A DNA stretch of 64,000 nucleotides from Minisyncoccia bacterium (GCA_038219305.1 JBBRJM010000001.1:3887-67886), one strand, 5' to 3'; counted from the first letter of the stretch, positions 9,519-51,470 are shown. The notes: a model not told the origin generated them from the sequence alone. A program made the numbers and translations.

Positions 9519-10413
9519 TATGATTCATACTTCTGTGCTTAAAAATGAATCAATCGACGGGCTTGATATAAAAGAAGGTGAAATTATTATAGACGGGACT
9601 CTGGGAGGCGGTGGACATACATATGAGATGATAAAGCGCCACGGATCAAGTGTTAAAATTATTGGACTTGATTTAGATAAAAAATCAATTCCACGAAGTC
9701 GTGAATTAATAGGTGATACAGACGCAGACGTCGTTTACAAAACAGCTGGATTCCAAGATATAGATGCCGTCTTAGACGAATTAGATTTAGTTCATGTAGA
9801 TAAAATTTTGCTTGACCTCGGAATTAGTTCCTTTCAATTAGAAGTTTCTGGCAGGGGATTTTCTTTTCAAAAAGATGAACCGCTCTTAATGACAATGAAA
9901 GATCATCCGGGTGAGGAAGATTTAACAGCAGAAGATATCGTCAATGTATGGGAAGAAGAAACATTAGCAGATATTATTTATGGTTTTGGTGAAGAAAAAT
10001 ATTCCAGACGTGTCGCTCGTGCAATTGTTGAAGCCCGGCGTGAAAAGCGGATTGAAACGACTTTTGATTTAGTCAAAATTATAGACAAAGCAATTGGGAG
10101 ATTTTATAAAGGCATGAGGATCAATCCGTCGACTAGAACATTCCAAGCATTACGTATAGCAACTAACAGTGAATTATTAAATTTAGAAAAAGTTATTGAG
10201 AAAGGTTTTAATAGGTTAAGCTCGGGTGGACGGATATCAATAATTACATTTCATAGTTTAGAAGATCGGATTGTCAAAAGAGCATTTTTAACATTAAAGA
10301 ATCAAGGAACAGCCGTCATTATTACTAAAAAACCAATTATACCTACTGATGAGGAAATCAAAGAAAACCCTCGTTCACGTAGTGCCAAATTGAGAATAAT
10401 TGAAAAAATATGA
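9505..10413 (+). CDS. rsmH: 16S rRNA (cytosine1402-N4)-methyltransferase RsmH (MraW)
   Basis: HxSVL N-terminus and SAM-binding DGTLGGGGH. Overlaps the mraZ stop. Confidence 0.85.
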   Translation: MAFFNMIHTSVLKNESIDGLDIKEGEIIIDGTLGGGGHTYEMIKRHGSSVKIIGLDLDKKSIPRSRELIGDTDADVVYKTAGFQDIDAVLDELDLVHVDKILLDLGISSFQLEVSGRGFSFQKDEPLLMTMKDHPGEEDLTAEDIVNVWEEETLADIIYGFGEEKYSRRVARAIVEARREKRIETTFDLVKIIDKAIGRFYKGMRINPSTRTFQALRIATNSELLNLEKVIEKGFNRLSSGGRISIITFHSLEDRIVKRAFLTLKNQGTAVIITKKPIIPTDEEIKENPRSRSAKLRIIEKI

Positions 10414-10733
10414 GTAAAACTAAAATAATAGCCAACAATATATCTGAGAGCAGTTACACGCAGAAATTTCTTTTTAGTATCCTGATTTGTGGGATTATTT
10501 TGATCGGTCTTATTTATGTTTACATAATTGGTTCTATTACTTTTAATGTTTTAGCTAGAAAATCTCTTGAATCTACAGTTAAAATTGCCAATAGTAATAT
10601 TAGTCAACTAGAATTGACATATTTAAATAAAGTTAACCAAATTGATAAAGAGTATGCACTCTCTCATGGTTTTGTTGAAATTCAAAATAATATTTTTGCT
10701 ACCAGATCTATTAATCGTGTTGCTATTCGCTAA
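10410..10733 (+). CDS. ftsL: FtsL-like cell-division protein (single TM, coiled coil)
   Basis: 107 aa with one TM. Lies between rsmH and ftsI with overlapping stop/start. The assignment is positional. Confidence 0.45.
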   Translation: MSKTKIIANNISESSYTQKFLFSILICGIILIGLIYVYIIGSITFNVLARKSLESTVKIANSNISQLELTYLNKVNQIDKEYALSHGFVEIQNNIFATRSINRVAIR

Positions 10734-12442
10734 TGAATCTTTTAACCTTTCAGTCTCGCATAAGAATTATTTCTGTGCTAATTTTTGGATTAGCATTTAT
10801 TCTTATTGTTAGACTTTTTTTTGTTCAGGTAATTAATACAAAGGTCTATACAGCTCGAGCAGATAAACAATATTCAACTCCAGCCTCAAATATTTTTAGT
10901 CGTGGTGCCATTTTTTTTTCTAAAAAAGATAATACTTTAGTAGCAGCTGCTAATGTCTTGTCTGGTTTTAAGTTAGCTGTAAATCCTAAATTAACTTTTG
11001 ATCGAGAAATAACTTATCAAGCTCTTTCACCATATTTAAAAATAGATCATCAAACATTTCTTTCGAAAGCTAATAAAAAGAATGATCCTTATGAAGAAGT
11101 AGCAGTTGAATTATCAAAAGAACAAATAACGGAAATTGAGAATTTAAAATTACCGGGAATTTCAATTTATAAAGATAATTGGCGATTTTATCCTGGTGGC
11201 ACAATGGCGGCTCACGCTCTTGGTTTTTTGGCTTATAAAGGTGACGATAAAGTTGGTCAATATGGACTTGAAAGAACTTATGATAAGATACTCTCTAAAT
11301 CAAAAGATCAATCTTATGTTAATTTTTTTGCCGAAGTTTTTTCAAATATTAAAGATACAATTTCAACTGAAAATGTTCAAGGTGAAATCATTACAACTAT
11401 TGAACCAGCTGTTCAACAAACTCTTGAATCAGAACTTTTGTTCACTTTTAATAAATGGAATGCTGATCAAGCTGGTGGAATAATCATTAATCCTCAAACT
11501 GGTGAAATATACGCTATGGTTGGATTGCCTAATTTTGATTTAAATAATTTTGGTAATGTTGAAAACTCTAGTGTTTATAGAAATACAATGGTAGAAGATG
11601 TTCTCGAATTTGGTTCAGTTATCAAACCACTTGTAATGGCTGGAGCTCTGGATGCTGGTGTTTTAAATGCAGAAACAACTTATACCGATAAAGGAGTTGT
11701 CACGGTTAATACTAAAGATATTTATAATTTCGATAAAAAAGCTAGAGGGTTAGCTACTATGCAAGATGTTCTCGATCAATCACTCAACACGGGAATGGTT
11801 TTTGTTGAATCTAAATTAGGCCATGATAAATTTAGATCCTATATGAAGTCGTATGGTATTGGTGAAAAAACAGGGATTGATCTACCTAATGAGACATCCG
11901 GACTGATTAAAAATTTAGATAGCCCGAGAGATATTGAATACGCTAATGCATCTTTTGGTCAAGGTATTGCTTTAACACCTATTGAAGCAGCTAGAGCATT
12001 TTCTGTTCTAGCTAATGGAGGAAAATTAATTACTCCTTATTTAGTAAAGGAAATAAAATATGAAAATGGCCAAACAAATCAAATAATGCATCCAATCGTC
12101 AAAGAAGGTATAATAAAAAAAGAGACTTCAGATGAAATATCAAGGATGCTGGTCCATGTCTTTGAGGCTTACGATAATGGATCCCACAAAGAAGAACATT
12201 ATAGTATTGCCACAAAGACTGGAACTGCCCAGGTAGCTATGGCTAATGGTAAAGGATATTATGCTGACCGTCACACCCACTCATTCTTTGGTTACTTTCC
12301 AGCTTATGATCCAAAATTTCTTGTTTTTATTTTTCTTAAGAATCCTAAGGAAGTTAAGTATGCTTCGCAGACACTCATTCCTTCATTCGTTAATATTAGC
12401 AAATTCCTTTTAAATTATTATAACGTTCCACCAGATAGATAA
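10733..12442 (+). CDS. ftsI: Class B penicillin-binding protein (FtsI/PBP3-like septal transpeptidase)
   Basis: N-terminal TM, SxxK (GSVIKP), SxN and KTGTA motifs. dcw context. Confidence 0.75.
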   Translation: MNLLTFQSRIRIISVLIFGLAFILIVRLFFVQVINTKVYTARADKQYSTPASNIFSRGAIFFSKKDNTLVAAANVLSGFKLAVNPKLTFDREITYQALSPYLKIDHQTFLSKANKKNDPYEEVAVELSKEQITEIENLKLPGISIYKDNWRFYPGGTMAAHALGFLAYKGDDKVGQYGLERTYDKILSKSKDQSYVNFFAEVFSNIKDTISTENVQGEIITTIEPAVQQTLESELLFTFNKWNADQAGGIIINPQTGEIYAMVGLPNFDLNNFGNVENSSVYRNTMVEDVLEFGSVIKPLVMAGALDAGVLNAETTYTDKGVVTVNTKDIYNFDKKARGLATMQDVLDQSLNTGMVFVESKLGHDKFRSYMKSYGIGEKTGIDLPNETSGLIKNLDSPRDIEYANASFGQGIALTPIEAARAFSVLANGGKLITPYLVKEIKYENGQTNQIMHPIVKEGIIKKETSDEISRMLVHVFEAYDNGSHKEEHYSIATKTGTAQVAMANGKGYYADRHTHSFFGYFPAYDPKFLVFIFLKNPKEVKYASQTLIPSFVNISKFLLNYYNVPPDR

Positions 12443-29123: not shown

Positions 29124-30275
29124 TTACTTCCCTTTCTTTAAATATTTTTTATTTTTTAATTTATCTGGTAATAAACTTTCTTTTGTATATTTTTCATAAT
29201 CTTTACCATAGCCAATATTTTTCATCAGATTGGTTGGTGCGTTTCTTATAATCATCGGGATCGATAAATTACCATATTTTTTTACATCTTCTTGTGCTGT
29301 TTTAAATGCCTCATAGGAATCTCTATTTTTGGGTGATTGTGCCAAATAGACGACTCCATGAGCTAGGTTTATGCCACATTCAGGCATTCCTATGATTTCA
29401 ACAGCTCTAAATACATCATTAGCGACGACTAGAGCTGTTGGTAGTGCAAGCCCTATATCTTCACTAGCAAAAATAACCATACGTCTAGCGATGAATTTTG
29501 GATCTTCCCCGGCTTCTAACATTCGAGCAAGATAATAAAGTGCTGCATCAGGCTGAGAGGCTCGCATGCTTTTAATAAATGCGCTGATAGTATTGTAATG
29601 CTCATCCCCTTTTTTATCATAACGTAAAATTTTTGACTGAAGTGTATTTTTAAAATTTTCAATATTTAATTCGTTATAGAGTGAAGATGTGTTTTCAATC
29701 ATAGCAATAGCTTGTCTGGCGTCACCATCTGACATTTCAATTAACCAATCACTTGCATCCTTCTTGATTTTAAAACCTGTTGATTTGATGATTTGTCTCA
29801 TCTCATCACTAGATAATTCTTCTAGTACAAAAACGCGACAGCGTGATAAAAGTGCTGAAATAACTTCAAAGCTAGGATTTTCTGTTGTGGCTCCGATTAA
29901 AATTAATTTTCCACTTTCAACATAAGGCAACAGAAAATCTTGCTGAGCTTTATTGAAACGATGTATTTCATCTAAAAATAATATTTTGGGTCCGAGAAGT
30001 TCACCAGTCCCGCGTGGGCCACTATCAACAATTTGCCTAATATCATCCTTGCCGGCAGATACCGCTGAGAGTTCATGGTAATCAGCGTTCATGGCTTGGG
30101 CATAAATTCGAGCTAGAGTCGTCTTGCCAACTCCCGGTGGACCCCAAAGAATAAAAGAAAAAATATGTTTTTTTTCAATAGCAATTCTGATTGGTTTGTT
30201 TGGGGCGACTAAATGAGCTTGGCCGACAAACTGGTCAAGGTTTCTAGGTCTTATTTTTGAAGCTAAGGGTTCCAT
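29124..30275 (-). CDS. rarA: Replication-associated recombination protein A (RarA/MgsA AAA+ ATPase)
   Basis: Walker [12 protein letters not shown], Walker B FLDEIHRF, MgsA C-terminal helical domain. Confidence 0.8.
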
Positions 30276-36315: not shown

Positions 36316-36498
36316 ATTTCTTTGGTGTAACTTTCTTGGGTTTCTTTACTTCTTTCTTGTGACTTACTCCTTTTGCCATATAATTTGTGTAATCTCGTCA
36401 CAATGATTGCGACGGAATAAAATAATTATTTAATAATAGATTTATTATATCACTCTTATACTATTTTCAAAAATATTAAAATCAATTATAATGTGGAT

Positions 36499-36666
36499 AT
36501 GAGTGATGAAGATGACACAAAAAATGAAATAACACCCAAAGACCCCATTTGTCCTAGATGTGGTTTGCGGTCTTATGACGAAGTATGCCAAAATTGTGGA
36601 ACTCCAATAGTTACGAAGACTGATGATGAAGATGAAGACTATAATTGGCGTGAAAAATATCGCTAA
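36499..36666 (+). CDS. Unlisted 55-aa zinc-ribbon micro-protein (CPRCG...CQNCG) with acidic termini
   Basis: Found by manual translation: MSDEDDTKNEITPKDPICPRCGLRSYDEVCQNCGTPIVTKTDDEDEDYNWREKYR. Two CxxC pairs. Below the ORF track's size cut-off. Confidence 0.4.
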   Translation: MSDEDDTKNEITPKDPICPRCGLRSYDEVCQNCGTPIVTKTDDEDEDYNWREKYR

Positions 36667-37645: not shown

Positions 37646-39337
37646 TCAAATAAATAATTTGGCAATTCGAATCTCTTCAAATGATAAATCATAACCCTCG
37701 CTCTCTAAAATTTGCTTAATGGGATTTAACTTTCCTAGTTCATCGTCTTTTAATTTTATATTTGCTTTTTTAACAAGGTCAATATTTTTTTGGCTCGGTT
37801 TGATGTGTTTGATATCTGTCTTTGGAAATTCTTCCATTATTTTTTCAATGTGGTGCGTAATTGTACCTAGTGTTAAATCACGCTCTTTGGCTATTTGTTT
37901 AATATTTTTACCACTCTCCAATAATTCTTTTGTAATTATGATTGTCGGAATCTTCGTATCAATGATCATTTTTTTTATTTTTTTATTGGTTCCGATTGCT
38001 CCATAGACAACTCCACCCATCTTATGAATGAAATCCACTTCTAATTTTTGCTGTTCATTATTTTTAAGTTTACGGAATAATAGTTCATTCTGGAAACTTT
38101 GATTTTTCAAATCTTGATCAAATTCTAAAATAATAGGGTCAACACGGAGTGATTCTGCATTAAAACCAACTAAACTTATACCCTCGAGTGTGCGAACTCG
38201 CGAAAGTGCAACATAACCCATTCCATAAGTAAAACTATTTCTTAAATCTATTTCAGCATTGTCGAGCGACATACCTTGGCTTTTATGAATAGTAATCGCC
38301 CATGCTAGACGAAGTGGAATCTGAGAAACGGAGGCTTTGACTTTACCATTCTCTTCGATGGCCCAAAGTTCTGGCTTTAAAATAATCTTCTTACCATTGT
38401 AGAGTTGAACAATAGGATTACCATGTCCATCTACAAATCCCACTACTTTACCGCGAGATCCATTAACATAACCTTCTTCAAAATTATTTTTGATACACAT
38501 TACTTCAGCTCCAATTTTGAGTTTCAGCCCCTCATGAGCTAAACAACTTTTTTTGAGAATTTCAACCAGTGGCTCGGGTCCGGTTGAAGTCATATGGAAA
38601 AATTTCTCATTACTTACTACATTAGAGAGTTCAATACTGTTTATATTGTCGACATTCACATTGTGAGTGTAAAGTCGAGTAGCTTTGATACCACTTTTAA
38701 GTGTGGCTCCAACTCGGCTTTGCAATTGTTCAATATGTTTTTGTTCCATACAATTCCCTCGGATGGTATTTAAAATTTCTGTTAAGTTATCATCTTCTTG
38801 ACGGTGTTGCTCTTCTATATAACAAACAGCTGGGTTAAGGCTCTGCCAAGCTGTACTTTCAAAAACCATACCACTTTGACCTTCCTGATTAATTGATTTA
38901 TTAATTGGAGGTAATTGAAAAAAATCACCAGAGAGAATAACTTGGAGTCCACCAAAAGGTGTATCGCTACGTTTGAATTTCCGGCACACACGTTCAACCA
39001 TATCAAGCTGTGATCCATGGAGCATTGAGACTTCATCAATGATTAAGATTCGGGCTTTCTCAAATCGCTTCCAAAGATACTTTTTTTCTTCGAGTTGATC
39101 GAGATCTCGCTCATCCATTTTATTTCGAATACCAATTCCTGACCAACTATGAATAGTCATTCCATTCATATGAGTTGCAGCAATACCAGTTGAAGCTGTG
39201 ACAGCAACAGGAATATCATGATCCTCAAGATAATGTATATATTTATTTAGTAAATAAGTTTTACCCGAACCAGCACTACCAGTTAAGTAGATATTAACGC
39301 CGGTTTTCATGATTAAAAATGCCTGATCTTGAGTCAT
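37646..39337 (-). CDS. PIF1/RecD-like superfamily 1 DNA helicase with a C-terminal helix-turn-helix extension. Co-transcribed with lexA.
   Basis: Walker A GSAGSGKTYL, Walker B LIIDEVSM, RecD/PIF1 motif TIHKSQGMSLD. The C-terminal about 130 aa are HTH-like. Confidence 0.7.
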   Translation of the reverse strand: MTQDQAFLIMKTGVNIYLTGSAGSGKTYLLNKYIHYLEDHDIPVAVTASTGIAATHMNGMTIHSWSGIGIRNKMDERDLDQLEEKKYLWKRFEKARILIIDEVSMLHGSQLDMVERVCRKFKRSDTPFGGLQVILSGDFFQLPPINKSINQEGQSGMVFESTAWQSLNPAVCYIEEQHRQEDDNLTEILNTIRGNCMEQKHIEQLQSRVGATLKSGIKATRLYTHNVNVDNINSIELSNVVSNEKFFHMTSTGPEPLVEILKKSCLAHEGLKLKIGAEVMCIKNNFEEGYVNGSRGKVVGFVDGHGNPIVQLYNGKKIILKPELWAIEENGKVKASVSQIPLRLAWAITIHKSQGMSLDNAEIDLRNSFTYGMGYVALSRVRTLEGISLVGFNAESLRVDPIILEFDQDLKNQSFQNELLFRKLKNNEQQKLEVDFIHKMGGVVYGAIGTNKKIKKMIIDTKIPTIIITKELLESGKNIKQIAKERDLTLGTITHHIEKIMEEFPKTDIKHIKPSQKNIDLVKKANIKLKDDELGKLNPIKQILESEGYDLSFEEIRIAKLFI

Positions 39338-39354: not shown

Positions 39355-39921
39355 TTAGTATTTTCGAATAACAGCTTTGACAATACCAATAATTGTCAGA
39401 TTAAATTTTGGATAGATTGATTTGAAATTAGAGTTGGCAGGTTCAAGCCAAATTTTATCTCCAACTTTTTTAAAATATTTCATTGTAAATTCCCCATCAA
39501 CACTTGCAATAACAATCTGACCATCATTAGCTTTATTTGATTTCTCTACCAAGACCATATCGCCATCAGTAATGTGAGCATCAATCATCGAGTCACCATC
39601 AACTGTTAACATGTAGGAGTTTTCTTTTTTGGTAATGAGATATTCGTCAATGTTGATAGTTTCTTTTAATTCCTCTGAGACATCAGATGGGAAACCAGCT
39701 TTAACGGAACCAAGCATTGGGATAGAATCAAACGAAACATCAGCAATCAATCGTCCTAAATAATCTTTTGTGATAATTCCCTCTTCGATGAATTTATCAA
39801 CTAGTCGAGCGACAGAATTTTTTGATTTAAAACCGAATAATTTCATCATTTCAGAATATGTCGGCATTCGCCTGTCTCGGTTATAAAATGCTATTAATTT
39901 TTCTTTGTAATTATTATACAT
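39355..39921 (-). CDS. lexA: LexA repressor (S24 peptidase)
   Basis: N-terminal winged HTH. Cleavage-site region ...GSVKAG..., and the catalytic Ser (DGDSM) / Lys (KKVGDK) dyad. Confidence 0.8.
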   Translation of the reverse strand: MYNNYKEKLIAFYNRDRRMPTYSEMMKLFGFKSKNSVARLVDKFIEEGIITKDYLGRLIADVSFDSIPMLGSVKAGFPSDVSEELKETINIDEYLITKKENSYMLTVDGDSMIDAHITDGDMVLVEKSNKANDGQIVIASVDGEFTMKYFKKVGDKIWLEPANSNFKSIYPKFNLTIIGIVKAVIRKY

Positions 39922-39933
39922 AAAACTATTATA

Positions 39934-40164
39934 TTAGAGATTAGAAAATTGAGGAAGATTATTTAATAAATTAAGTATATTTCCCAAAAATCCTCGACGT
40001 TGGTGTTGACGAATTTTGTGAAGAAGTTCCTTGTGTTCACGAGCCTCTTTTGAATAATCTACTCCTTGCAAAATTTTCATATCAATTTTTTTATTGATAT
40101 TTTGAATCTCTCGGGCAATGATTTTTAAATATTGTTCTTTACTCATACGATTTAGCGAAATCAT
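39934..40164 (-). CDS. Small hypothetical protein (76 aa), the first gene of the LexA-box-controlled operon
   Basis: ORF immediately downstream of the SOS box. 12 bp upstream of lexA. Confidence 0.4.
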   Translation of the reverse strand: MISLNRMSKEQYLKIIAREIQNINKKIDMKILQGVDYSKEAREHKELLHKIRQHQRRGFLGNILNLLNNLPQFSNL

Positions 40165-40235
40165 GTCGCATTAACATCTTCTGAAATACGACGAATCTCG
40201 AAATTACTATTAATTAGTTGTATATATAGTATATG

Positions 40236-40253
40236 TGAACGAACGTTCACAGT
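40236..40253 (-). promoter_or_regulatory. LexA (Cheo/DinR-type) SOS box: GTGAACGAACGTTCAC
   Basis: Perfect palindrome containing GAAC-N4-GTTC, about 75 bp upstream of the small ORF/lexA operon. Confidence 0.7.
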
Positions 40254-40270
40254 CAAGAAATAAACTGTGG

Positions 40271-40494
40271 ATAACCCCCACACCTATATTTTTATCTCAG
40301 GTTAACACCTGCATAAAGGAATATAAAAATATAGGGGTGGAGGTAAACCCCCTACTACTTAATATCTCAGGTTAATACCTGCATAAAGGAATATAAAAAT
40401 ATAGGTGTGGAGGTAAACCCCCTACTACTTAATATCTCAGGTTAATACCTGCATAAAGGAATATAAAAATATAGGTGTGGAGGTAAACCCCCTT
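40271..40494. repeat. 3 x 70-bp near-identical tandem direct repeats, preceded by an inverted partial copy
   Basis: Unit tatctcaggttaa(c/t)acctgcataaaggaatataaaaatatagg(g/t)gtggaggtaaaccccctactacttaa. Each unit has an ACACCT...AGGTGT hairpin. 40271-40292 is the reverse complement of the unit's core. Confidence 0.85.
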
Positions 40495-40497
40495 AGA

Positions 40498-40530
40498 AAA
40501 GCCACGCACCATGCGTGGCTTTCTTTATTT
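40498..40530 (-). terminator. Rho-independent terminator for the 40529-41059 gene
   Basis: aaagccacgca-cca-tgcgtggcttt hairpin. T run on the minus strand. Confidence 0.6.
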
Positions 40531-41059
40531 AAAATAATGAATCAACTATATTCCAGGGAAGATTTGAAAATAAAATTACGACATAAAGTATAAAGAAAAT
40601 TATTGGAATATTTTTTTCAATAGAAGAAAGTTTGCGATATTTCTTGTTGTCTTGTCCTCGACCTAATAATTCCCATTCTGTTTTGTAAAGTGATAAAGGT
40701 AACTGTTCTTCGATTTCATGAATGACTTTGAATTTAGCTCGATTGGAATTTCGATATGTAATAATCATCTGGTACCAGCAATAACAAATTGCAATTCCTA
40801 CAAAAGGAGCGAAGAGAAAAATTATTGAATGATCCTCATTTACGTTTTTTGTTTCGAGATAACCAATGACTCCGATGATGGCTGTATTGAGCCCGAGAAA
40901 AAATTCGTTTGATTTATTTCGTCTATCATTACTGCTATTGAAAATAGATAAATAGGCTTTGTATTGTTCGAGATAGTGGTTTTCGTAGTTCTTGTCTTCG
41001 CCATCATTATAATGACCAGTCTTAGAATACAAAAGTTCATTTAATTTATTTTTTTCCAT
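40529..41059 (-). CDS. Hypothetical polytopic membrane protein
   Basis: 176 aa, 3-4 hydrophobic helices. Confidence 0.4.
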   Translation of the reverse strand: MEKNKLNELLYSKTGHYNDGEDKNYENHYLEQYKAYLSIFNSSNDRRNKSNEFFLGLNTAIIGVIGYLETKNVNEDHSIIFLFAPFVGIAICYCWYQMIITYRNSNRAKFKVIHEIEEQLPLSLYKTEWELLGRGQDNKKYRKLSSIEKNIPIIFFILYVVILFSNLPWNIVDSLF

Positions 41060-43940: not shown

Positions 43941-44387
43941 TTATTTTCTATATTTTCTATTTCTCCATTTATCAGCAATTTTAACCCGGTTAAGCGATCG
44001 CTCAAGTTCTGTTTCAAAGTGTTCAAAGTCAACCACTTCTTTATTGAGGGCTAATTTACGTAATTCTTCAGCTTTAGCCTTGGCTTTTTCAATCAATTCA
44101 TCAGTAAGTTCCGCCACATGCATAGCATAATCAGCCAAGATGGCCACTTCTGTCATACCCTCATCATTATTTTTGACTTCAACAAATCCTCCAACGACAG
44201 CAATCGGCACATATTCGCCATTTACTTGCGAAACAATATCGCCTGTTGCAATTTGAGCAATGAGTGGAATATGATTTGCTAAGATCGTAATCTCTCCCTC
44301 TTTTGTCGGTAGCGTAACAGCCTCGACTAATTCCTCTAGAATTAATTTCTCGGGTGTGACTATTTTAAGTTTTAATAGTTTTGACAT
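43941..44387 (-). CDS. atpC: F0F1 ATP synthase subunit epsilon
   Basis: Beta-sandwich N-domain plus C-terminal helices. Last gene of the atp operon. Confidence 0.8.
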   Translation of the reverse strand: MSKLLKLKIVTPEKLILEELVEAVTLPTKEGEITILANHIPLIAQIATGDIVSQVNGEYVPIAVVGGFVEVKNNDEGMTEVAILADYAMHVAELTDELIEKAKAKAEELRKLALNKEVVDFEHFETELERSLNRVKIADKWRNRKYRK

Positions 44388-44399
44388 AAATTAGTTTAA

Positions 44400-44464
44400 A
44401 AGTTATCAGGTTTATAAAGTTATCAGGTTTATAAAGTTATAAAAAAATTTTCTTTATAACTTTA
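44400..44464. repeat. 2 x 17-bp tandem repeat (aagttatcaggtttata) followed by a 13-bp-arm palindrome, between atpD and atpC
   Basis: Read directly from the sequence. Palindrome ataaagttataaa...tttataactttat. Confidence 0.7.
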
Positions 44465-44481: not shown

Positions 44482-45855
<1,374 letters not shown>

Positions 45856-51188: not shown

Positions 51189-51354
51189 TTGTGCGTGTGC
51201 TTGGATCGCGAGTACGCTTATCTCGCCTTACGGTCGCGGGTGCTTTTCAATCTTCGATAATGAAAAGCCTTCCGATTCCAAGGCGTAAGCAAAGAAGTTT
51301 GCTTACTCAACCCGCTGTGCGTGTGCTTGGAATCGGACCAAGGACCTCTGTCTT
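51189..51354 (-). repeat. Partial direct copies of the tRNA-Ile 3' region plus the conserved tRNA-associated module
   Basis: 51317-51354 is a copy of the anticodon-stem-to-3'-end part of tRNA-Ile. 51189-51226 (minus strand) reads GGCGAGATAAGCGTACTCGCGATCCAAGCACACGCACA. 51263-51286 holds a 12-nt inverted T-arm copy. Confidence 0.7.
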
Positions 51355-51398
51355 TTAAACAGTAACGAGTTGCAAAATGAAAAAATTACTGCGCTGGG

Positions 51399-51470
51399 TG
51401 CGTGTGCTTGGAATCGGACCAAGGACCTCTGTCTTATCAGGACAGCGTTCTACCACTGAACTACACACGC
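51399..51470 (-). tRNA. tRNA-Ile (anticodon GAU)
   Basis: Hand-folded cloverleaf: acceptor GCGTGTG/CACACGC, D-arm GTTC-AGTGGTA-GAAC, anticodon stem CTGTC/GACAG with loop CTGATAA, T-arm CTTGG-TCCGATT-CCAAG, discriminator A. Confidence 0.75.

Follow-up and report, generated by a model that had tools for sequence, protein, structure and literature searches.

A tandem array of three 70-bp units lies in a 64,000-nt stretch of DNA from a Minisyncoccia bacterium (GCA_038219305.1, JBBRJM010000001.1:3887-67886; hereafter the window), upstream of a predicted SOS operon consisting of a small open reading frame (ORF), lexA and a helicase gene. The array probably represents a recent, lineage-confined tandem amplification of one half of a conserved inverted repeat that precedes the lexA promoter, and as such would be neutral or only quantitatively modulatory. 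We regard it as an ordinary lineage-specific minisatellite, beside an SOS operon of a known kind.

In a subset of Paceibacteria-type genomes an inverted repeat stands ahead of the SOS promoter; along the operon strand it is followed by a DnaA box, 9 nt, the -35 element, the LexA box and the -10 element. In the window genome, a 70-bp block comprising the distal arm and the centre of the repeat has been copied into three head-to-tail units, probably through slippage during replication or through unequal recombination. Two recent duplications in succession would fit, because unit 1 departs at two positions from the mutually identical units 2 and 3. The array would supply extra copies of the arm motif, any influence of which on the promoter would be quantitative at most, and its copy number would be expected to vary, as in a minisatellite.

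Loci compared

The window is AT-rich (~32% GC), and the names attached to homologues of its genes are those of Candidatus Nomurabacteria and Paceibacterota, within the candidate phyla radiation (CPR). The comparison set comprised ~60 related loci (numbered with the prefix L) from Paceibacteria/Nomurabacteria-like metagenomes, which were retrieved by two routes independent of each other. In the first, contigs that encode homologues of the small protein were retrieved by exact matching (L002-L007, L012-L015, L062-L063). In the second, metagenome contigs were scanned with the promoter pattern TTGACNGTGAACGNNCGTTCACATATACT, which demands nothing upstream of the -35 element and no DnaA box; this yielded 45 loci (L016-L060). 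Arrays in the relatives were sought with Tandem Repeats Finder (TRF) in the 500 bp upstream of each promoter, and the arm was sought, with up to 4 mismatches, in 438,285 bases (the window plus the fetched loci, nearly all of them related). The source genome is apparently not among the GTDB representative genomes.

Structure and distribution of the array

The three near-identical units described in the first-pass annotation of the window were recovered by TRF with a period of 70, 2.9 copies, 98% matches and a score of 388. They occupy positions 40293-40362, 40363-40432 and 40433-40493; units 2 and 3 are 100% identical, while unit 1 is 97% identical to them, with 2 substitutions. The array has the repeat form of a minisatellite or variable-number tandem repeat (VNTR), that is, head-to-tail units within the 10-100-bp range and of high identity. 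Each unit is composed of the distal (left) arm, a mini-hairpin and a 10-nt linker. The distal-arm 21-mers are located at 40323, 40393 and 40463 on the minus strand. The mini-hairpin, CAGGT-TAAY-ACCTG (40298-40311, 40368-40381 and 40438-40451), is the robust local structure of the unit; the ACACCT...AGGTGT hairpin attributed earlier to each unit is perfect in none of them.

The 55-nt core of the unit occurs only in these 3 places in the 64-kb window (0 expected), and the array is confined to the window genome in the TRF survey of all related promoters. Away from this site, no further copies of the unit or the arm were detected in the window or in any of the loci, either by low-stringency BLAST or by the mismatch search, and a repeat search of the whole window yielded no dispersed small-repeat family. 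A scan of the GTDB representative genomes with a G-rich 19-mer of the unit produced four single matches, about the number expected by chance, in unrelated taxa (Deltaproteobacteria, Angelakisella, Euryarchaeota and Desulfobulbales), and the arm had no matches in IMG/VR.

A clustered regularly interspaced short palindromic repeat (CRISPR) array was considered and rejected, in agreement with the first-pass annotation: the units abut head to tail without spacers (spacing 70/70), and the neighbouring genes lack cas domains. The sole match to a CRISPR-DR family (40079-40102) lies outside the array and scores 17 bits against a gathering score of 37. In the whole window, only two tRNAs reached an Rfam gathering score; in a permissive scan of 39900-40600 the best local matches, mir-1277 (27 versus 81) and TPP (23 versus 54), were sub-threshold.

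In the closest relative, L012, the copy number is 1, versus 3 in the window, the comparison being one between species. Of the roles suggested earlier for the array, VNTR or neutral duplication fits best, given its presence in one genome only and the single copy in L012; copy-number variation at the strain level was not seen, as the assembly breaks in the array. In this form it is similar to the VNTR loci formed by mycobacterial interspersed repetitive units (MIRU-VNTR) in Mycobacterium tuberculosis, which consist of near-identical, intergenic head-to-tail units of 40-100 bp. Here, likewise, near-identical units follow one another in an intergenic spacer, with one copy in L012 and three in the window. 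In contrast to the MIRU-VNTR loci, it is a single locus rather than a dispersed family, its unit goes back to an arm of an inverted repeat under selection, and its variation is known between species only. The array is of little import in itself; at most, it might serve as a VNTR to tell strains apart within a Paceibacteria lineage that has not been cultured.

The chance that the repeat is a spurious duplication, introduced by the assembler of the metagenome-assembled genome (MAG), is practically negligible. The identity of units 2 and 3, together with the length of the array (210 bp), which exceeds common k-mer sizes, makes the copy number untrustworthy, yet unit 1 differs from the other two by two substitutions, and an independent Logan assembly of SRR19962012, which runs from the adjacent 8xMP gene towards the array, stops 37 nt into the distal unit, as at a genuine repeat branch. 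Because this second assembly breaks inside the distal unit, the repeat is considered real in the reads. No other assembly spanning the array was found: neither the 70-aa nor the 76-aa form of the small protein (see below) is on record, and two Logan contigs stop at or near the array.

The inverted repeat and its arms

The segment 40269-40295, which flanks the array on the promoter side, matches the reverse complement of 27 nt in each unit at 85-89%. The inverted partial copy reported earlier at 40271-40292 therefore exists, although it is longer than was stated. Overlooked at that stage were the two features that give the copy its meaning: the units are one half of a pre-existing inverted repeat, and a DnaA box lies between this repeat and the -35 element.

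The single-copy state is best seen in L012, in which the synteny (DNA_alkylation - 8xMP - small ORF - lexA) is that of the window and LexA is 85% identical. The order in L012 is the terminator of the 8xMP gene, GGGGACTTATCCTCCACGCCTATATTTTTAT, a 27-nt centre, ATAAAAATATGGATGTGGGGG, directly followed by TTATCCACAG, and the -35 element; the centre carries a mini-hairpin of its own (GCAGAT-TTTA-ATCTGC). This single copy matches unit 1 plus the right arm of the window at 82.5% over 80 bp, and the alignment of the single-copy homologues in L012 and L048 to the unit indicates orthology. The inverted repeat was also found in L048, L037/L038 and L059, with AT-rich centres of 27-130 bp. The consensus of the proximal arm, which abuts the DnaA box, is ATAAAAATATrGrTGTGGGGG, and that of the distal arm, 27-130 bp further upstream, is GGGGnnTTATCCyCCACrCCTATATTTTTAT. 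The 21-nt cores form 16-20 Watson-Crick pairs and thus have the form of terminal inverted repeats.

The proximal arm of the window, CCCCCACACCTATATTTTTAT, is identical at 21/21 positions in L022, L037, L059 and L060. The upstream region of L060 is fully sequenced and contains the proximal arm only, without a distal arm; the contig of L022 ends 50 nt upstream of the -35 element and does not reach the distal side. Decayed relics of the proximal arm were recognized in L002, L026, L045, L053 and L062, while ~80% of the related promoters lack even a well-preserved right arm. The loci with the inverted repeat are scattered on a neighbour-joining tree of LexA; this distribution, together with the relics, suggests that the repeat was ancestral and was then lost repeatedly.

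Within the 438,285 bases, the 21-nt arm core occurs at the promoter-upstream site only. From one genome to another, the arms show 0-4 differences in 21 positions, with the greatest divergence in L048, while the 4-fold degenerate sites of lexA are 31-47% identical between carriers of the inverted repeat, versus 30% for random sequence, and are thus saturated. By this comparison, the 21-nt arm motif is evidently under purifying selection. It most likely acts as a DNA-level sequence motif, a putative protein-binding site, rather than by pairing, because the right arm is intact in L060 without a distal arm, the distance between the arms varies five-fold, and the element lies downstream of the neighbouring gene's terminator and upstream of the -35 element. 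The position of the array is probably, for its part, an untranscribed spacer between these same two landmarks.

If the arm motif binds a factor, as would follow from this interpretation, the array might be read as a set of iterated binding sites, in which the 21-31-nt arm is an operator or enhancer-like site acting with the DnaA box and three copies were selected for occupancy. Candidate binders are an extending DnaA oligomer, the HTH_40 domain of the helicase, the 70-aa protein or another regulator. We consider this explanation unlikely, while acknowledging that several properties of the arm are in its favour, namely the purifying selection at saturating divergence, the conservation of the proximal arm without its partner in L060, its constant location next to the invariant DnaA box, and the variable arm spacing, which fits independent sites. 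The array itself is less accommodating: it exists in a single genome, ~80% of the related promoters do without a well-preserved right arm, the near-identity of the units points to a very recent origin rather than a maintained function, and the arm has no known ligand.

The units also carry no LexA half-site (no GAAC or GTTC) and no DnaA box at up to 2 mismatches; the promoter-proximal DnaA box is the sole one at this threshold within 40200-40540. A cluster of DnaA boxes was therefore rejected as an interpretation of the units. Iterated operators or UP-like elements, as suggested earlier, are thus not represented by known boxes, but each unit does hold the 21-nt motif selected across species, and a role of this kind is conceivable. 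It is similarly unlikely that the arm and the invariant, high-affinity DnaA box constitute a new cis-regulatory module, the triplication being an adaptive multiplication of sites instead of neutral slippage; if true, the module would make lexA-operon expression in Paceibacteria depend on replication-initiator status or on a new arm-binding factor.

A number of observations weigh against a neutral or merely quantitative amplification. If the arms are functional sites, their tripling may not be neutral. The copy number derives from one short-read MAG assembly, a second assembly breaks in the array, and no strain-level polymorphism was seen. Moreover, a small secondary deletion must be assumed, because the sequence at the unit junction, TTAAGTAGTA, does not simply repeat the distal flank as it now stands (CTAA). 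Finally, the element folds better than shuffled sequence on either strand (z-scores of -4 to -7), its consensus hairpin contains two compensatory pairs among three sequences, and, with G-U pairs allowed, the operon strand has 6 mismatches versus 11. Some room is thereby left for an RNA or cruciform role of the element.

Carried further, the folding data would make this an RNA element, either a long sense hairpin that insulates the promoter from read-through, or a divergent, LexA-controlled antisense small RNA, transcribed from close to the LexA box across the units to the bidirectional terminator at 40498-40522. Taken together, the two versions are improbable. The strong folding of both strands (z-scores of -6.3 and -7.0 for 296 nt), the two compensatory pairs, the better G-U-tolerant pairing of the operon strand and the T-run of the terminator hairpin on the plus strand would all be explained, but the element has no Rfam match and is located between the upstream terminator and the -35 element in the window, L012 and L037. 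What is conserved is the sequence rather than the structure, the right arm alone surviving in L060. No conserved divergent promoter was seen and a distal terminator is absent in L048 and L059; in most relatives there is no room for such an RNA.

The terminal-inverted-repeat form of the arms raises the question of a mobile element, and the first-pass annotation had listed the end of such an element, or an integrative element, among the candidates. In this scenario, a miniature inverted-repeat transposable element (MITE), or its remnant, with 21-bp terminal inverted repeats and a TTATCC sequence resembling a target-site duplication, would have inserted into the DnaA box, and the array would be its rearranged end. 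The Correia elements of Neisseria, MITEs with functional ends and hundreds of dispersed copies, offer a close formal parallel: their terminal inverted repeats measure ~20-26 bp, the centre is short, AT-rich and variable, a short direct repeat flanks them, and they are found next to promoters; here, in contrast, there is one locus type only. Both 21-nt cores have TTATCC immediately beside them in L012, L037 and L059, and both the AT-rich variable centre and the patchy phyletic distribution on the LexA tree are as would be expected of a MITE. However, the direct repeat is degenerate in the window and in L048, and duplication of one half of the DnaA box would account for it equally well.

This origin is very improbable on the remaining evidence. 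The 438 kb, including the 64-kb window, contain no second copy, IMG/VR gave no matches and the GTDB genomes chance matches only. There is no transposase or integrase nearby, the context being one of housekeeping genes. The relics in five loci and the lone right arm in L060 are those of an old, locus-bound element, and the arms are under selection. The proposal of an integrative element was rejected, and that of a mobile-element end has no support in these data.

LexA and DnaA boxes in the promoter

The promoter is of the sigma-70 type, and its 17-nt spacer between the -35 and -10 elements accommodates a LexA box with perfect 7-bp arms and a 2-nt centre (Table 1), in accordance with the perfect Cheo-type box of the first-pass annotation. 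In 7 of 7 distinct loci retrieved by protein identity alone, the promoter architecture, including the LexA box, is identical. The position of the box inside the promoter spacer and the conserved order of small ORF and lexA also bear out the SOS-controlled operon recognized earlier. The operon is thus predicted to be autoregulated by LexA, with an operator that overlaps the promoter and is conserved in orthologous promoters. LexA would repress the transcript of small ORF, lexA and helicase, and DnaA would provide a second input. The array appears dispensable for this control, because more than 40 related promoters share the architecture without an array. One other GAAC-N4-GTTC sequence is present in the window, at 11432; it was rejected as a second operator, since its intragenic location indicates a chance occurrence.

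Table 1. Coordinates of the lexA operon, its promoter region and the upstream gene, numbered from the first nucleotide of the window.
Feature	Position	Strand	Basis or remark
PIF1-family superfamily 1B (SF1B) helicase with C-terminal HTH_40	37646-39337	minus	third gene; Pfam PIF1 9.4e-38, Pif1_2B 2.7e-10, HTH_40 6.9e-12
lexA, 188 aa	39355-39921	minus	TIGR00498, 138 bits versus a cutoff of 110.95; Peptidase_S24 6.6e-31
Small protein, 70 aa (MSKEQYLKII...)	39934-40146	minus	first gene; 44 homologues
5' untranslated region (UTR): conserved TTAATTAATAGTAATT block, then ~45-nt hairpin insert (type A)	40147-40227	minus	basic UTR ~40 nt in most relatives
Sigma-70-type promoter, TTGACT - 17 nt - TATACT	40228-40256	minus	10/12 match to consensus; -35 TTGACT at 40256-40251, -10 TATACT at 40233-40228
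LexA box GTGAACGAACGTTCAC (GTGAACG-AA-CGTTCAC, GAAC-N4-GTTC type)	40235-40250	palindrome	read from sequence
DnaA box TTATCCACA in block R-G-TTATCCACA-G	40265-40276	minus	perfect; 9 nt upstream of -35
Proximal (right) arm CCCCCACACCTATATTTTTAT of inverted repeat	40275-40295	plus	21-mer comparison among loci
Tandem array, 3 x 70 bp	40293-40493		TRF, repeat families, arm positions
Bidirectional terminator-like hairpin	40498-40522		ends 8xMP gene and bounds array distally; 11-bp stem, 6 GC pairs
8xMP-family membrane protein	40529-41059	minus	upstream neighbour, outside SOS unit; Pfam 8xMP 5.1e-40

The likeness to autoregulated lexA promoters with a Cheo-type box is considerable: LexA has a GAAC-N4-GTTC box in its own promoter, and the SOS unit is small, in a reduced genome. 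The present operons seem to differ from these in that lexA stands second, after the gene for the 70-aa protein and usually before a PIF1/HTH_40 helicase gene, and in that the promoter includes an invariant DnaA box.

The 9-mer DnaA-box consensus TTATCCACA is matched perfectly at 40266-40274 on the minus strand. Among 47 distinct promoters, 45 carry the perfect 9-mer within R-G-TTATCCACA-G, at 8-10 nt (mostly 9) upstream of the -35 element; of the other two promoters, that of L047 has the 9-mer with one mismatch and that of L028 lacks it. The block is kept down to 61% LexA identity, at which the flanking intergenic sequence is unalignable. The window has one other copy of TTATCCACA, inside a gene, and because of this rarity the 9-mer is not a general promoter feature. 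Conservation of the RGTTATCCACAG block goes beyond the neutral expectation, because it is found at a fixed spacing in 45 of the 47 promoters, the search pattern did not include the box, and the synonymous sites of lexA are saturated. The 11-mer GTTATCCACAG is found twice in the oriC region of Escherichia coli (L064, 151-161 and 331-341), with identical flanks; we take these two occurrences of GTTATCCACAG, or of the block RGTTATCCACAG, to be the high-affinity boxes R1 and R4.

The invariant box predicts joint control of the lexA operon by DnaA and LexA in Paceibacteria. As far as checked, a fixed consensus DnaA box on the promoter of a CPR lexA operon has no earlier description; the check did not take in the main study on the SOS response of Patescibacteria, in which Sanchez-Osuna, Barbe & Erill (2017; Environ Microbiol 19:3465; cited in PMC8565304) reportedly described the SOS network of this group. 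The promoter regions of uvrB, recN and dinJ in E. coli likewise combine DnaA and LexA boxes, and both proteins have been shown to act jointly on these genes; there the boxes are overlapping or clustered, and the DARS1 site is located in uvrBp3 (PMC6015884). In contrast to the E. coli cases, the lexA operons, which are known from sequence alone, have a single consensus box; it is centred on the region of about -45 to -53 and was found in 45 of 47 promoters.

The interest of the locus is modest and resides mainly in the composite DnaA and LexA promoter and in the selected arm motif. The promoter makes a testable prediction, namely that the master SOS regulator responds directly both to DNA damage and to the state of the replication initiator. 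The locus also defines a conserved, unannotated 70-aa helical-hairpin protein, predicted to be co-transcribed with lexA. Together with the selected 21-nt upstream motif, without a known ligand, and the optional leader hairpins described below, these features provide entry points to regulation in unculturable organisms.

Leader region

In most relatives the basic UTR measures ~40 nt. Optional hairpin inserts of ~30-45 nt were observed at the same point, after AGTAATTA (40147-40205 of the window, minus strand). They are of two unrelated types, each conserved over distant loci and with 1-2 compensatory pairs. Type A is common to the window, L017, L021, L030 and L051, and its consensus hairpin has 14 pairs with 1 compensatory change; type B is found in L018, L020, L022, L035 and L060. 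Neither type has an Rfam match.

Genes of the operon

The three genes are closely spaced, with gaps of 12 nt between the small ORF and lexA and of 17 nt between the lexA stop and the helicase start. The lexA product is an orthologue of LexA, with a winged-helix N-terminal domain and an S24 self-cleaving domain. The first-pass calls of lexA and of a PIF1-type helicase with a helix-turn-helix (HTH) tail were confirmed by the domain searches (TIGR00498 for the former; Pfam PIF1, Pif1_2B and HTH_40 for the latter). The domain order of the helicase, PIF1, 2B and HTH_40, is identical to that of bacterial Pif1-family helicases with HTH_40 (PF05970 + PF14493). The fusion emphasized earlier is therefore a common form of the family and is not novel; its linkage to lexA alone is noteworthy.

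The small ORF, reported earlier as 76 aa, encodes 70 aa, with its start at 40146. The start MSKEQ/MSREQ is shared by all 44 database homologues, nearly all of which are 64-70 aa long. The longer reading begins at 40164, and its six additional codons fall in the 5' UTR insert that most relatives lack; the 76-aa start is thus an artefact, because the type A insert creates an upstream start. A library-wide search with a hidden Markov model (HMM) placed the family in 322 clusters at 50% identity, nearly all of them stand-alone proteins of 42-133 aa, and yielded no informative fusions. The AlphaFold2 model is a two-helix hairpin, with a predicted local distance difference test (pLDDT) score of 84. 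No relative was found by Pfam scans of 27 members, by a profile search against the PDB or by Foldseek with this confident model, generic helical hairpins being all that these searches returned. The family is basic and unannotated, and the gene has no visible Shine-Dalgarno sequence. That the protein is an SOS effector or modulator is only a guess.

The order of small ORF and lexA is kept in nearly every related locus. The helicase gene follows lexA in most loci with sufficient downstream sequence and is absent from this position in L012, L013 and L026. Its linkage to lexA is hence frequent but not obligatory, because the two closest relatives, L012/L013 and L026, are without it. In L012 (2909-3525) and L013, oppositely oriented genes take the place of the helicase gene after lexA.

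Surroundings of the operon

The upstream 8xMP gene is bounded by the terminator-like hairpin, which has a T-run on the plus strand and TTTTC after the stem on the minus strand; an analogous terminator hairpin is present in L012. An 8xMP neighbour is found in L012 and L059 as well, while other relatives have a different neighbour. Over the whole set, the upstream genes include 8xMP, NmrA-like, CAP, DUF2238, a zinc-ribbon gene and a tiny basic peptide. In the window, the surrounding genes code for an ATP synthase subunit, a release factor, enolase, a DNA-alkylation repair protein and an NmrA-like protein. The context of the cassette is variable, yet of a housekeeping nature, and neither an integrase nor a transposase gene was seen among these neighbours.

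Two small ORFs recur in these surroundings. A zinc-ribbon ORF of 54-57 aa with an acidic/aromatic tail (36493-36666 of the window, plus strand) accompanies the cassette in many relatives, encoded on the opposite strand immediately ahead of the promoter or else beyond the helicase gene. It was located in L003 (3648-3812), L002 (7386-7550) and L006 (6513-6680), and in the upstream regions of L048, L028, L053 and L055. Upstream of several lexA promoters, a tiny conserved ORF of ~19-25 aa (MAKGDGHRKEVKKPKK... or MAKGVTHKKEVKKAKK...) is followed by a terminator; it was observed in L037 (~10360-10430, minus strand) and in the upstream regions of L015, L028, L048, L053 and L055.

Other features of the window

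A further tandem repeat, with a 17-bp unit (GTTTATAAAGTTATCAG, 2.8 copies, 96% identity), is located at 44394-44440, within the spacer between a 450-aa ORF (44482-45834) and the gene for ATP-synthase epsilon (43941-44387). The tRNA-Ile(GAT) gene at 51395-51471 is flanked by partial copies of itself (51191-51566): positions 51317-51354 equal 51398-51435 at 100%, and 51434-51471 match 51529-51566 at 92%. These copies may have been left behind by integration or excision, or may have arisen by duplication in place. The cumulative GC skew reaches its maximum near 28 kb (~26000-30000), where gene orientation appears to switch, as might be expected of a strand-switch region or one resembling a replication terminus; the lexA locus is ~12 kb away.

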